64,000 bases of DNA. Source: Burkholderiaceae bacterium (lineage in GTDB: Bacteria; Pseudomonadota; Gammaproteobacteria; Burkholderiales; Burkholderiaceae_C). The stretch covers positions 20 to 64,019 of the forward strand of contig JBEIHU010000001.1 in NCBI GenBank assembly GCA_040381175.1, given 5' to 3'. The position numbers and the translations under genes were made by a program. Below are positions 32,950 to 44,763 of this stretch, piece after piece. The notes beneath the pieces were generated by a model that did not search any database, was not told where the DNA came from, and saw nothing but the letters and a program-made list of their open reading frames with translations. Each line of letters starts with the position of its first letter. Within the stretch, counting starts at the first letter, position 1.

Positions 32950-32953
<4 letters not shown>
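32309..32953 (-). CDS. hisG: ATP phosphoribosyltransferase (short form)
   Basis: [25 protein letters not shown]; ~214 aa with no C-terminal regulatory domain. Confidence 0.95.
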
Positions 32954-34215
<1,262 letters not shown>

Positions 34216-38581: not shown

Positions 38582-38668
38582 CTGATTGCTCCTTGGACGG
38601 CTCTTGTTCGCCCGGCTCGGTAAGATGGCTGCACGACCGAGCCATTTTCACCCACAGGAGACGCACCC

Positions 38669-38923
38669 ATGGCCAGCCTGAAAGCCAAGTTCGACAAGGC
38701 CGTCACCGACAGCAAGAAGCTGCCGGAAAAGCCCGACAACTCGACCCTGCTGAAGATCTACGCGCTGTACAAGCAGGCCAGCGAGGGCGACGTCGAAGGC
38801 AAGCGCCCCGGCATGACCGATTTCGTCGGCCGCGCCAAGTACGACGCCTGGGCCGGCATGAAGGGCAAGTCGGCCAACGAGGCGATGCAGGAATACGTCG
38901 ACCTGATCGAATCGCTGAAGTAG
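38669..38923 (+). CDS. Acyl-CoA-binding protein
   Basis: LYKQASEGD, RAKYDAW, AMQEY; AGGAG RBS. Confidence 0.92.
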   Translation: MASLKAKFDKAVTDSKKLPEKPDNSTLLKIYALYKQASEGDVEGKRPGMTDFVGRAKYDAWAGMKGKSANEAMQEYVDLIESLK

Positions 38924-38940
38924 CCGCTGCCTCCGGCGCC

Positions 38941-39283
38941 TCAGCGGCCGCGCGCGGCCAGCACGTTGCGCAGCGATGCCGGGCTCACCGAAGGCGGCCC
39001 GTCCGGTTCCTCGCGAGCCAGGCCTCGCCGTCGAAGCCGGCCGCGGCGAAGTACGCGCTGCGTGCCACGCCGCAGGCGACGCCAGCGGCCCGGCACTCGT
39101 CCATCAGGCGCAGCACGCCCGGGCGGGCGCGGATGCCGCCTTTGCGTCAGCAGATCGGCATGGATGGCGTTCTTGCGCGGCCGCAGCCTCGCGCCAGGAC
39201 CTCGCGTTCGGACCGGCGACAGGGCGCGTCACTGCGGCGCTGCATGCAGCCCAGCATGCGCTCGCGCCGACCGTGGCTCACAT
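38941..39283 (-). pseudogene. cbbY: CbbY (HAD-family XuBP phosphatase) remnant
   Basis: Frameshifted fragments GRRERML...EREVLAR / RKNAIHADLL / GGIRARPGVLRLMDECRAAGVA / SAYFAAAGF; HAD motif I absent. Confidence 0.6.
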
Positions 39284-39325
39284 GGCGCTCGCCGCAATCG
39301 GGGCAGTTGGTCAGTTTCGAGCCGG

Positions 39326-39813
39326 TCAGGCCGGCGCTGCCACCGAACCGTGCCCCGGGCCGTTGCGCTCGCGCGCCAGCATCTTTTCGGCCAGCGCGAA
39401 GCCGACCGCGTTGCCGACGCCCTGGCCGGTCGGGCCAGTGGTGGCGTCGGCCCCCGGCGTCAGACCCGGTTCCGGCTGACGCGCTGGCTTGCTGTGCAGC
39501 TTGCGGAAGCTTTTGATCTCATCGATCGGCAGCTCGTGGCCGCCCAGGTGCGGCAGCTCCCACGGCAGCATCGACGCGCGGCCGTTGCTGAGCAAGAAGC
39601 GGCGCGGTCCGGCCGGTGCGGCTTGGCCGGGTTGCGGCGCAGGTGGCCGGTGCACAGCGCCACCGCCGTCTCGGCCATGCCTATTGGCGCGCCGGGGCGG
39701 CCGGAGTTGACCTGCTGCACGGCGTCCAGGGCCAGCGCGCGCAGCGCGTCGGCACGCGCATCGGTCGGTGCCCGGCCACTGCACAGCCCCTTGACGTTGG
39801 AGGCTGAAGCCAT
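39326..39813 (-). pseudogene. cbbT: Transketolase (CbbT) N-terminal remnant
   Basis: ADALRALALDAVQQVNSGRPGAP, -1 shift near 39603, RFLLSNGR, TTGPTGQGVGNAVGFALAEK; ~160 codons left, conserved His lost; TGATG-coupled to prk. Confidence 0.88.
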
Positions 39814-40697
39814 CACAGCGCTCCCTGGGCGCGCTTGCGACGCTCCATCATGCGCCAGATGAAGGGCGTGAAGATCAGCTGCATCGCCAGCTCCATCTTG
39901 CCGCCGGGCACGACGATGGTGTTGGCGCGCGACATGAACGAGTCGCCGATCATGTTCAGCAGGTAGGGAAAGTCGATGCCCTTGGGGTTGGCGAAGCGGA
40001 TGACGACGAAGCTCTCGTCGGCGGCAGGGATCTCGCGCGCGATGAAGGGGTTGCTGGTATCCACGCAGGGCACGCGCTGGAAGTTGACATGCGTGTGCGC
40101 GAACTGCGGGCAGATGTAGTGCACGTAGTCGGGCATGCGGCGCAGGATGGTGTCGGTCACCGCCTCGGTGGAGTAGCCGCGCTTGGACTTGTCTCGCCAC
40201 AGCTTCTGTATCCATTCGAGGTTGATCACCGGCACCACGCCAATCAGCAGGTCGGGATAGCGTGCCACGTTGACCTCGGGCGTGATCACCGCGCCGTGAA
40301 GCCCCTCGTAGAACAGCAGGTCGGTGCCGCCGGGCACGTCCTCCCAGGCGGTGAAGGTGCCGGGCTCCTGGCCATGGGGAGCGGCCTCGTCGGCATCGTG
40401 CAGGTACAGGCGGCGCCGGCCGGTTCCGCTTGCGCTGTAGCTGCGGAACAGCTGTTCGAGCTCGGCGAACAGGTTGTTCTCCGGACCGAAGTGGCTGAAG
40501 TGCTTGTTGCCCGCCGCCTCGGCCTCGGCCTGCCGCAGCTTCATCTCCTTGCGCTCGTAGCGGTGGAAGCTGTCGCCTTCGACGATCGCGGCAGTGACGC
40601 TCTCGCGCCTGAAAATGTTTTCGAAAGTGTGCGTCACCGAAGTGGTACCCGCGCCCGACGATCCGGTGACGGCAATGATGGGATGGCGCTCGGACAT
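39813..40697 (-). CDS. cbbP: Phosphoribulokinase (proteobacterial type), intact
   Basis: GSSGAGTT, EGDSFHRYER, FYEGLHG, WIQKLWRD..RGYS, ILRRM, VPGGK; 294 aa uninterrupted. Confidence 0.95.
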   Translation of the reverse strand: MSERHPIIAVTGSSGAGTTSVTHTFENIFRRESVTAAIVEGDSFHRYERKEMKLRQAEAEAAGNKHFSHFGPENNLFAELEQLFRSYSASGTGRRRLYLHDADEAAPHGQEPGTFTAWEDVPGGTDLLFYEGLHGAVITPEVNVARYPDLLIGVVPVINLEWIQKLWRDKSKRGYSTEAVTDTILRRMPDYVHYICPQFAHTHVNFQRVPCVDTSNPFIAREIPAADESFVVIRFANPKGIDFPYLLNMIGDSFMSRANTIVVPGGKMELAMQLIFTPFIWRMMERRKRAQGAL

Positions 40698-40716: not shown

Positions 40717-41808
40717 TCAGTCACGGAACAGGCTGCGTTCGGCAAACAGCGGGTTCCGGGTCTCATTGGCGGGTTCGCGGTGGTAGCGCTCGATGCGCTC
40801 GACCTCGTGGCGCGAGCCGAAGACCAGCGGAACGCGCTGGTGCAGCGAGCCGGGCGCCACGTTCAGGATCGGCTGGCGCCCGGTGCTGGCGCGCCCGCCG
40901 GCCTGCTCGATGATGAAGCCGATCGGGTTGCCCTCGTAAAGCAGGCGCAGCCGGCCGGGCTTGGACGGGTCCTTGGTGTCGCGAGGGTACAGGAAGACGC
41001 CGCCGCGCATCAGGATGCGGTGCGCCTCGGCCACCATGCTGGCGATCCAGCGCATGTTGAAGTCCTTGCCGCGCGGCCCGGTGCGTCCGGCCAGACACTC
41101 GTCGACATAGCGCTTGACCGGCGGCTCCCAGAAGCGGCTGTTCGAGCTGTTGATGGCGAACTCCTGCGTGTCGGCCGGCACGCGGATGTCCGGGTGCGTC
41201 AGGACAAACTCGCCCAGGTTCGGGTTCAGCGTGAAGCCGCTGACGCCGTTGCCCACGCTCAGGATCAGCATCGTGGTCGGGCCGTACAGCGCGTAGCCGG
41301 CGGCCACCTGCTGCACGCCCGGTTGCAGGAAATCGGCCTCGCCAAGGTGGCGGCCGCTGTCCACCGCCTCCTGCGGCGCGCGCAGGATCGAGAAGATGCT
41401 GCCGACCGAAAAGTTGACGTCGATGTTCGACGAACCATCGAGCGGATCGAAGACCAGCAGGTACTTGCCGCGCGGGTACTGCGCCGGGATCTGCAGCAGG
41501 TCGTCCATCTCTTCCGAGGCCATGCCGGCGAGGTGGCCGTTCCACTCGTTCATGCGGATGAAGACTTCGTTGCTGAGCTCAACCAGCGGCTTCTGCACAT
41601 CGCCCTGGACGTTGATTCGGCCGTCCTGGGTCGGGCCAGTGTCGGCCAAGGAATCGTGCAGTTCGCCGAAGGCCACGATACGGGCGATCGCCTTGCACGC
41701 CAGCGCGATGTCCAGGATCAACGCGTTCAGGTCGCCGCTGGCTTGCGGAAAGCGGCGGCGCTCCTCGATCAGGTGACGGGTCAGGGTCCAGCGCTTGGAC
41801 ATGGGCAT
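40717..41808 (-). CDS. cbbF: Class 1 fructose-1,6-/sedoheptulose-1,7-bisphosphatase, intact
   Basis: [39 protein letters not shown]; 363 aa uninterrupted. Confidence 0.95.
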
Positions 41809-41825: not shown

Positions 41826-43081
<1,256 letters not shown>

Positions 43082-43315
43082 GCGTTTGCTTCGCTGCGCG
43101 GCATTGGGTTTGACCTGGCAATGACCTCGCTCTGGGTTCGGGTCTTGTTGATTGAAAGCCAGACTTGCTTTCCGCGCAGATGACAAACGCTCAGCAAGAA
43201 GGTGCGGACGACGGAATGCCGGTGTGTCGATGTGCCAATGCTCAGCAGCACAGGAGACCCCGAACCACGGCCGAGGCGCCGCCGCGGCGGGGCGAAGGCG
43301 CCGGCGGCAAGCGCG

Positions 43316-43657
43316 CTACTTGCGCGCCTTGCGCACCTCGGCCGCCTTCCTGGCAGGGGCGGAGGCCCCGGCGGTGAGCAGCTTGTCGAGATTGCGCTCG
43401 ATCTCGGTTTCGATCGTACGGCTGAACGCGCCGAGCAGGAAACCGAGCTTGGCGTTGAGGTCGAAGTGGTCGGCCGCGACGATGAGCGTGCCCTTGACGC
43501 CCGAGCGGGTGAATTCGATCGTGTCGCTGAAATCGCCCTCGATCACGCTGCACTGCATGTCGAAGTTCTTCTCAACGTCCTCGGCCCACTGCCAAGCCAC
43601 CTTTCGCGCCTTGGACAAGCCGAGCTTGTGCTCGCGATGAATGCGAATCTCCGCCAC
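43316..43657 (-). CDS. Polyhydroxyalkanoic acid system protein (PHA granule region family)
   Basis: IHREHKLG..AR, FTRSGVKG, KLGFLLG; AGGAG RBS before GTG. Confidence 0.82.
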   Translation of the reverse strand: MAEIRIHREHKLGLSKARKVAWQWAEDVEKNFDMQCSVIEGDFSDTIEFTRSGVKGTLIVAADHFDLNAKLGFLLGAFSRTIETEIERNLDKLLTAGASAPARKAAEVRKARK

Positions 43658-43674
43658 GAGGTCTGCTCCTGAAT

Positions 43675-44763
43675 CTATGGAATGGCGCGTAGTGTGGCGT
43701 GGCGCTGCGCCTTCGGCAAGGCGGCGATTTCGGCCGCCCGGGCATGGAAGCGCTCGAGGTCGCCCCCCTGCTGCACGAACAGGCGCTCGAAGTCGCCGGC
43801 CAGTTCGTTGTAGGCCGCCAACACGCCCAGCGAGGCGTTGTTGACCTGCTCGAACCACGCGTCGTAACCGGCAAACCCTCCCCAGCGCTGCTGCTTCATC
43901 TGCGCATAGTCGGCGCGCAGCCGGGCAATCAGCTCGGCCTTGGCGCTGCGCTTGGCCGCGTCGCCGAGCTCGCTGTCGTACAGGTGCTCGAACCGTTCGC
44001 GGTAGCGCGCCGTCAGCTCGCGGAAGTCCTGCCTGCGCTGCAGGCCGTCAAGGTACTGCGCGCGCGCAGCCTGGCTGCCATGCCGCTCGAGCCACAGCCG
44101 CGTGCCGATCCGTTCCACCGCGGTGGCGAAGGACTCGTTGTACATGGTGTCGCCGGCGACATAGAGCTTCTGGTGCGCCAGCTCATGGAAGATCATTCGC
44201 GCCAGCTCGGCTTCGGAGCCGTTGACGAAGGTGTTGAGCAGCGGGTCGCCGCCGATCCAGTTGCTCCAGCCCAGCGTCGAGTAGGCTGGCACGCCGTAGA
44301 CGCCAACGTCGTAGCCTTGATCGCGCACGTGCGCAGCGAAGTCATCGGCCTGCGCACGGTCGAAGTAGCCGCGATAGCCGACGCAGCCGGCCACCGGAAA
44401 GCACCAGGTCTTGAGCTGCAGCGACAACGCTGGCGCGGCCACCACGTTCCATACCGCAGCCGGCCGCTGCAGGTCGGCATAGGCGCGGTAGCTGGCGTTG
44501 TCGGGCAGCTTCAGCACCTGGACCGAGAACTCGCGCATCTGCTGCGACAGCGCCAGGCGCTGTTTCAGCGCGGCCGGCGTGTCGGCCTGAGCGATCCAGT
44601 CGTCCACCGGCTTGGCACGCGACATCAGGTCGAGGTGGCCGCCCACCGACTGGCGGTAGTAGCCCAGCTCGCTGCAGCCGCTGCCCAGGCACAGCGCGCC
44701 CACGGCCAGCAGCGCCGTGCCGGCAAGCCCGAGCCCGGCCATCAGCCAGTGGCGCCGCGCCAC
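43675..44763 (-). CDS. Putative zinc aminopeptidase (DUF2265-like)
   Basis: WCFPVAGCVGYRGYF, AYSTLGW, HELAH...NES. Confidence 0.85.
   Translation of the reverse strand: MARRHWLMAGLGLAGTALLAVGALCLGSGCSELGYYRQSVGGHLDLMSRAKPVDDWIAQADTPAALKQRLALSQQMREFSVQVLKLPDNASYRAYADLQRPAAVWNVVAAPALSLQLKTWCFPVAGCVGYRGYFDRAQADDFAAHVRDQGYDVGVYGVPAYSTLGWSNWIGGDPLLNTFVNGSEAELARMIFHELAHQKLYVAGDTMYNESFATAVERIGTRLWLERHGSQAARAQYLDGLQRRQDFRELTARYRERFEHLYDSELGDAAKRSAKAELIARLRADYAQMKQQRWGGFAGYDAWFEQVNNASLGVLAAYNELAGDFERLFVQQGGDLERFHARAAEIAALPKAQRHATLRAIP

Follow-up and report, generated by a model that had tools for sequence, protein, structure and literature searches.

An intact phosphoribulokinase gene in a decayed cbb locus of a Burkholderiaceae bacterium and its proposed link to 3-hydroxypropionate genes

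Sequence comparison of the cbb locus of a Burkholderiaceae bacterium indicated that the gene for phosphoribulokinase (prk), the kinase that supplies the substrate of Rubisco, is retained by selection despite the lack of any visible Rubisco. Taking the gene content of the host and its relatives together, we lean towards the reading that prk is kept for small amounts of RuBP, which would act as a signal inducing 3-hydroxypropionate (3-HP) genes via a CbbR-type regulator. The chances appear about even for the wider proposal that, in freshwater Burkholderiales, the 3-HP pathway has replaced Rubisco repeatedly while the control circuit of the Calvin cycle was kept, with NADH-activated PRK making RuBP solely as a second messenger and a CbbR taken over from a form IA Rubisco operon sensing it to induce the 3-HP genes.

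Decay of the cbb locus and selection on prk

The host assembly (G000) comprises 4.0 Mb in 324 contigs and is 88.9% complete, and the window, the whole stretch of 64,000 nucleotides that was analysed, corresponds to its contig C1. Decay of the locus was read against the nearest relative, G014, which is syntenic and has a PRK 94% identical to that of the host. In comparison to the G014 order, cbbR is deleted, cbbL is a relic, cbbS is deleted, cbbX is a relic, fbp and prk are intact, and tkt and cbbY are relics, giving the following features in window coordinates:

39075..39268, minus strand: relic of a cbbY-like HAD phosphatase gene, frameshifted and mostly deleted
39261..39813, minus strand: tkt (cbbT) relic with frameshifts and large deletions, pN/pS 1.03, its start overlapping the prk stop
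39813..40697, minus strand: prk, intact proteobacterial-type phosphoribulokinase of 294 aa, open from ATG to TGA, under purifying selection
40717..41808, minus strand: fbp, intact cbbF-type class 1 fructose-1,6-bisphosphatase of 363 aa, pN/pS 0.23 on the G000 branch
41826..42484, minus strand: cbbX relic with two deletions, one of them internal, its start lost, and 17 of 142 invariant columns changed
42483..43081, minus strand: form IC cbbL relic with a frameshift and two stops, its 3' half deleted along with cbbS
43182..43315, no strand assigned: scar of the divergent cbbR that is present in G014 and deleted here

The roughly 960 bp that include cbbR in G014 are reduced to about 135 bp in the window, and none of cbbL, cbbS and cbbR, which a working cbb operon would carry intact, is intact at the locus. 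The initial annotation had described an intact prk beside a dead Rubisco, and this description held, as a frameshift and two stops disrupt cbbL, whose 3' half is missing, and cbbS is gone. The same broken locus was found on contigs of three other sequencing studies, and a single contig of run X2 covers positions 42234-44500, including both the junction of cbbL with cbbX and the site of the cbbR deletion, which argues that the broken locus is no assembly artefact. Loci of the two nearest relatives (L033:3880-6407 and L057:833-5978) carry single frameshifts in cbbR, cbbL, cbbX or fbp that may be sequencing errors or early decay. A sigma-70 promoter search around the prk locus gave no match.

The prk product scored 507.7 bits on the NCBIfam phosphoribulokinase model NF011997 (cut-off 362) and matched the Rhodobacter sphaeroides PRK structure 1A7J with an E value of 5.5e-118. 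The motifs GSSGAGT, GDSFHRYER, EGLHG, KLWRDKSKR and ILRR are present, so that of the motifs listed initially the P-loop, GDSFHRYER, EGLHG and ILRR stand as given, and only the spacing of KLWRD..R needs correction, three residues lying between D and R. All R. sphaeroides PRK residues that were checked are kept (the P-loop, D42, H45, R49, K53, Y98, H100, E131, K165, R168, D169, R173, R187, R221, R234 and R257), and we take these to be catalytic and allosteric positions.

Pairwise dN/dS values against G014 were 0.11 (prk) and 0.17 (fbp), in comparison to 0.37-0.61 for the relics and 0.08-0.25 for flanking genes. With changes on the host branch polarised by seven outgroups, pN/pS was 0.15 for prk, 0.23 for fbp, 0.50 for cbbL, 0.73 for cbbX and 1.03 for tkt, and invariant columns had changed at 4 of 204 sites in prk versus 65 of 396 in three relics (cbbL, cbbX and tkt) combined (Fisher p 9e-9). 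The low level of change in prk against the decay of cbbL, cbbX and tkt indicates that prk stayed under purifying selection on the host lineage. Relative to the window, the strains of runs X2-X4 diverge at 38600-39800 by about 4%, with additional indels and a skip of 40 bases, confined to the tkt and cbbY relics, and by less than 1% over the remainder of the stretch. This strain variation (about 48 letters plus indels in 1.3 kb of the tkt and cbbY relics versus 3 in 670 of prk) was dropped as evidence of selection because the cbbL and cbbX relics are nearly as invariant as prk. RNA runs contained only 0.05-0.08 of the sequence words.

A CbbR-type regulator facing propionyl-CoA synthase

The sole CbbR-type protein of the assembly is encoded on contig C241 (C241:3302-4201), divergent from a gene whose product matches propionyl-CoA synthase (Pcs, PDB 6EQO) with 1587 bits. 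This pcs comprises the first 1034 aa in an open frame that ends at the contig end, and a DNA pattern for extending the contig had no matches in the metagenome collection. The regulator is 43% like CbbR, the next best protein in the genome reaching 30%, and CbbR is its best family at 291 bits, which lies under the NF045990 cut-off of 450; its closest structures are NdhR and CmpR. In a 46-protein tree, regulators linked to 3-HP genes nest among form IA-linked CbbRs with support of 98-100, and by this placement the C241 regulator is a descendant of a form IA CbbR. Among 80 related metagenome loci, 33 face a form IA-type cbbL, and the closest of the 80 lie in 3-HP clusters, with meh in 23, smtA in 16 and pcs in 9. 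The available part of one source gives K106, S226 and N227 as the contacts of CmpR to RuBP (PMC13249358). The corresponding residues of the C241 regulator are N, T and N. The absence of the lysine that binds RuBP in CmpR speaks against the signal reading, although of 14 CbbRs linked to form IA Rubisco, 13 likewise have N at this position.

The full 3-HP bi-cycle was not found in the host genome. The assembly lacks mcr, mcl, mch, smtAB and meh, both sides of the host control region are without smtAB, mct, mcl, mch and meh, and elsewhere there is only a mct-like paralogue of 49%. A mesaconyl-CoA-isomerase-like paralogue at L207:3503-4720 (G000:C207) scored 449 bits against a cut-off of 725 and lies outside any 3-HP cluster. 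In five relatives (G101, G006, G126, G183 and G119) the regulator and meh face a run of smtA-smtB-mct-mcl-mch-pcs, which is followed by mcr in all except G119; the names meh, mch and smtAB come only from family likeness and gene position. The host, G035 and L250 have lost the middle genes, and there the regulator directly faces pcs. The layout regulator-pcs-mcr is seen in G035 and L250, whose regulators are 90% identical to that of the host, and not in the host assembly, where pcs is cut by the contig end. Despite this loss of the middle 3-HP genes, a control region of about 110 bp is retained. Its best-kept 17 bases, in the pcs promoter, are ambiguous as an operator, since they end in a start codon and contain AGGA, and may be only a ribosome-binding site.

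Distribution of prk, Pcs and the regulator

The genus survey covered 163 genomes at least 85% complete, with prk present in 95 and not found in 68. Of these 95, 85 also matched Rubisco of form I or II (some matches being partial at contig ends, and that of G014 frameshifted), and eight had prk without Rubisco on contiguous DNA at the locus (G000, G006, G011, G016, G101, G126, G142 and G144); two further genomes were set aside, G095 for a contig break and G164 for a divergent prk on a 3-kb contig. The initial annotation had proposed surveying such Rubisco-less genomes for co-occurring genes. Pcs was present in 7 of the 8 versus 5 of the 85 Rubisco-keeping genomes (9 of 68 prk-negative genomes), and the regulator, at 69% identity or more, in 6 of 8 versus 4 of 85 (1 of 68). 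Ten of the 11 genus genomes with the regulator also have prk. The 15 mcr-positive genomes divided into nine with both regulator and prk, five with neither and one ambiguous case, G103 (p 0.0005-0.002, values that are overstated because the genomes are kin and not independent). G103 was rejected as a joint loss of prk and regulator, as its cbbR-fbp ends at a contig end and its prk is probably just unassembled. The exceptions were G016, with prk and no Rubisco, Pcs or regulator; G099, with the regulator and no prk; and G142, which has no C241-type regulator and keeps its own cbbR. No prk was found in G074, which has form IA Rubisco, indicating that absences can be false. A cbb-type fbp kept with prk deleted was found in 0 of the 68 prk-negative genomes, so the survey offers no control for the ease with which prk disappears.

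A tree built from gyrB and parE of 30 chosen genomes (parE alone for G000, G006, G014, G143 and G182) placed Rubisco-less prk in at least three separate clades, with weak deep support. The host adjoins G035, which keeps Rubisco, has no local cbbR and carries regulator-pcs-mcr; at L047:2164-2637 this genome has an intact-looking cbbLSX-fbp-prk-tkt-cbbY with no cbbR upstream, and its 3-HP-linked regulator may have taken over Rubisco control. As a tree marker murA was replaced by gyrB and parE, since 20 of the 30 genomes had no close match to it. The window copy of murA (32950-34215) has a close match in 10 of the 30 and a best full-length match of about 31% in 5 of 5 others checked, which suggests from sequence likeness that MurA was replaced in much of the genus.

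A mct match was found in 12 of 400 family genomes, and in all four of the closest, which were examined, the regulator and prk were present or absent together. Two near-complete genomes of two other genera, G242 (99%) and G201 (100%), have a full 3-HP cluster, the regulator and prk, and no Rubisco, while relics of cbbL or cbbX are present. G470 has a full 3-HP cluster, the regulator and prk plus Rubisco, and G316 (99% complete) has neither regulator nor prk and no Rubisco. G316 carries a smtAB-mct-mcl-mch-meh block at L354:10369-17157, with pcs and mcr absent in the 40 kb examined. G201 carries another CbbR-like gene (42%) immediately downstream of mcr (L358:14-166; G201:C39:5296-6165). Two contigs titled Gemmatimonadales (L077 and L111) carry a Burkholderiales-like cbb operon with a PRK 84-86% identical, which may reflect transfer or mislabelled bins.

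A proposed role for RuBP and its alternatives

The favoured explanation is a redox-responsive circuit. In R. sphaeroides, according to the part of the source available, PRK activity is raised by NADH and lowered by AMP, and CbbR is activated by RuBP (PMC4806589). Excess reducing power in the host, whose genome includes an aerobic CO dehydrogenase, would likewise let NADH-activated PRK make RuBP, upon which the C241 regulator would induce pcs and probably mcr. Pcs and Mcr would then convert carboxylated acetyl-CoA to propionyl-CoA, providing a CO2-using electron sink in Rubisco's place. The C241 regulator may also drive fbp-prk because the local cbbR is gone. Among the uses of RuBP suggested initially, signalling through a CbbR-like regulator is the one favoured, as the sole CbbR-type protein faces pcs and co-occurs with prk in relatives.

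The form I aerobic CO dehydrogenase cluster lies at L364:2886-6685 (G000:C9) and is a possible source of reducing power. A PQQ dehydrogenase is encoded on contig C5, and no photosynthetic reaction centre was found in a search of the genome. Isocitrate lyase is encoded, a biotin carboxylase is read as a probable propionyl-CoA carboxylase, and a methylmalonyl-CoA mutase fragment lies at a contig end. Methylotrophy was rejected, as methanopterin cyclohydrolase (MCH) was found in 0 of 5 genomes tried.

Alternatively, RuBP may only keep fbp-prk switched on by feedback through CbbR, with 3-HP making Rubisco dispensable and not being controlled by RuBP. The compact cbbR-fbp-prk-cbbY cassette without cbbLSX in G011, G101, G126, G142 and G144 fits this, as does the constant pairing of fbp with prk, no case of a cbb-type fbp without prk having been seen, and the cbb-locus fbp is the sole class 1 FBPase in the assembly. 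We nevertheless regard it as doubtful, for the local cbbR is deleted in the host and missing in G006 and G035, all three of which have the 3-HP-linked regulator, G103 retains its cbbR-fbp cassette despite a housekeeping fbp, and the place of CbbR inside 3-HP clusters would be left unexplained. That the whole genome has no other FBPase was given up as unproven: the gene that usually adjoins the housekeeping fbp sits at a contig start, and the housekeeping fbp may therefore lie within an assembly gap. For the same reason gluconeogenesis, which had been offered as the explanation for keeping fbp, is unproven.

An intact Rubisco of form II or form IA in the unassembled part of the genome, leaving PRK to do its ordinary job, is unlikely. 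Such an arrangement does exist in relatives, as in G071 (form IA) and G106 (form II) Rubisco is encoded elsewhere than at the Rubisco-less cbbR-fbp-prk locus, and G182, G010, G086, G090 and G105 have form II near it, and the host assembly at 88.9% leaves room for it: the full gyrB was not found, and gaps cut methylmalonyl-CoA mutase and pcs. Across that assembly, however, the RuBisCO_large and RuBisCO_large_N profiles each match only the cbbL relic. A second Rubisco, as raised initially, is not seen in the assembled part and may, at low probability, lie in a gap. Furthermore, the cbb transketolase and cbbR, which are retained where another Rubisco has replaced the local one, are destroyed in the host, and the same state recurs in two genomes of other genera (99-100% complete) and in seven more of the genus (87-96%). 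Contigs of four runs on the cbbM region of G182 (80% likeness) gave summed depths over the cbbM bins of 6-24 in X2 and 17-19 in X3, against about 115-124 and 209-228 for contigs of the host organism, and these cbbM depths were left uncounted because cover is thin.

PRK may instead have a general role that requires neither Rubisco nor CbbR, acting on another sugar or with a protein partner as an analogue of the orphan prkB of Escherichia coli K-12, whose product is 61% identical with the same motifs. Four of ten prk-positive genomes from other families of the order likewise had no Rubisco match. We consider this improbable, since the 68 of 163 genus genomes in which prk was not found argue that there is no general need for PRK, and the host gene has its origin in a cbb operon and follows the distribution of 3-HP genes.

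Metabolic consumption of RuBP without Rubisco, for example through ribose-1,5-bisphosphate to PRPP as the initial annotation had suggested, is very unlikely and has in its favour nothing beyond the need for some RuBP sink. The sole IF-2B-family match is methylthioribose-1-phosphate isomerase (MtnA), which scores 355 bits on NF004326 (cut-off 271) and 119 against the R15P isomerase model, short of its cut-off of 314; no Rubisco-like protein was found in a search of the assembly, and one PhnN motif, a weak test, had 0 matches in the genome. As to a possible RuBP sink, the cbbY gene is retained in six Rubisco-less cassettes of the genus, dead in the host and absent beside prk in G242.

Finally, that prk is functionless and simply still undecayed is scarcely credible, even though it sits within a pseudogenised operon and G016 is possibly such a case, given its 14 nonsynonymous to 29 synonymous changes on the host branch versus 114 to 51 in the relics (p 2e-5) and 0 indels or stops in its 294 codons versus several in the operon neighbours on both sides. 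The G016 fragment (L048:5905-9887) comprises a truncated cbbX, cbbY, a phosphatase, fbp and a divergent prk (72%) with no Rubisco, and adjoins apparent bacteriochlorophyll and carotenoid genes.

Significance and comparison with known systems

If the RuBP-signal explanation is true, the hallmark metabolite of one CO2-fixation pathway would control a different one, and the 3-HP cluster would be wired as a redox-responsive CO2 sink, providing to our knowledge the first regulatory model for the proteobacterial 3-HP cluster. RuBP signalling would also gain an independent second example, one in which the Rubisco relics are still visible. The proposal gives a testable reason for the survival of PRK without Rubisco, and prk alone would be a poor Calvin-cycle marker in genome surveys; PRK was the entry marker in the part of the Burkholderiaceae survey PMC9802188 that was available.

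The host prk can be compared with four known systems. E. coli has no Calvin cycle, and we know of no function for its orphan putative phosphoribulokinase gene prkB (b3355); this gene resembles the host prk in identity and motifs, but lies in the order yheT-yheU-prkB-yhfA-crp and not in a cbb relic. The Burkholderiales form IC cbb operon (cbbR, cbbLSX-fbp-prk-tkt-cbbY-fba) shares its ancestral gene order and PRK family with the host locus, which differs in that all but fbp and prk are deleted or broken and which cannot fix CO2.

The 3-HP bi-cycle cluster was already known from Burkholderiaceae MAGs, as far as the accessible text of the source describes it (PMC9802188). Relatives of the host share meh, smtAB, mct, mcl, mch, pcs and mcr with those clusters and the host shares Pcs, but in the host only the reduced regulator-pcs(-mcr) form is present. 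The portion of the supplement covered here had 0 matches for CbbR or LysR, the accessible text of the paper drew no link to PRK, and the literature searched, a partial set with few subscription papers, held no link of PRK or CbbR to 3-HP.

The closest parallel is Methylorubrum, in which control of the serine cycle by Prk, RuBP and QscR was reportedly described for M. extorquens (Ochsner 2017). In the parts of the sources at hand, RuBP acts via QscR on serine-cycle genes of this species (PMC8388818, PMC9727194), and QscR is a CbbR homologue (PMC2680597). Both systems have PRK without Rubisco (for the host, as far as its assembly shows) in a regulatory role, a CbbR-homologous LysR regulator and a target in non-Calvin carbon assimilation, the regulatory role and the target being predictions for the host. 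The host differs in being betaproteobacterial, in its predicted target of pcs/mcr and the 3-HP cluster, and in its lack of methanopterin cyclohydrolase; a serine-cycle target as in the methylotroph is not seen, as the regulator faces pcs and MCH is absent from 5 of 5 genomes tried. The regulator moreover appears to have been recruited from a form IA Rubisco operon, and the relics point to recent and repeated loss of Rubisco. The initial description of an undescribed system was therefore too broad, since PRK without Rubisco is already annotated in E. coli and a RuBP signal has been reported for Methylorubrum. PRK without Rubisco and the 3-HP cluster in Burkholderiaceae were already known, and what appears to be new is the proposed link between them.
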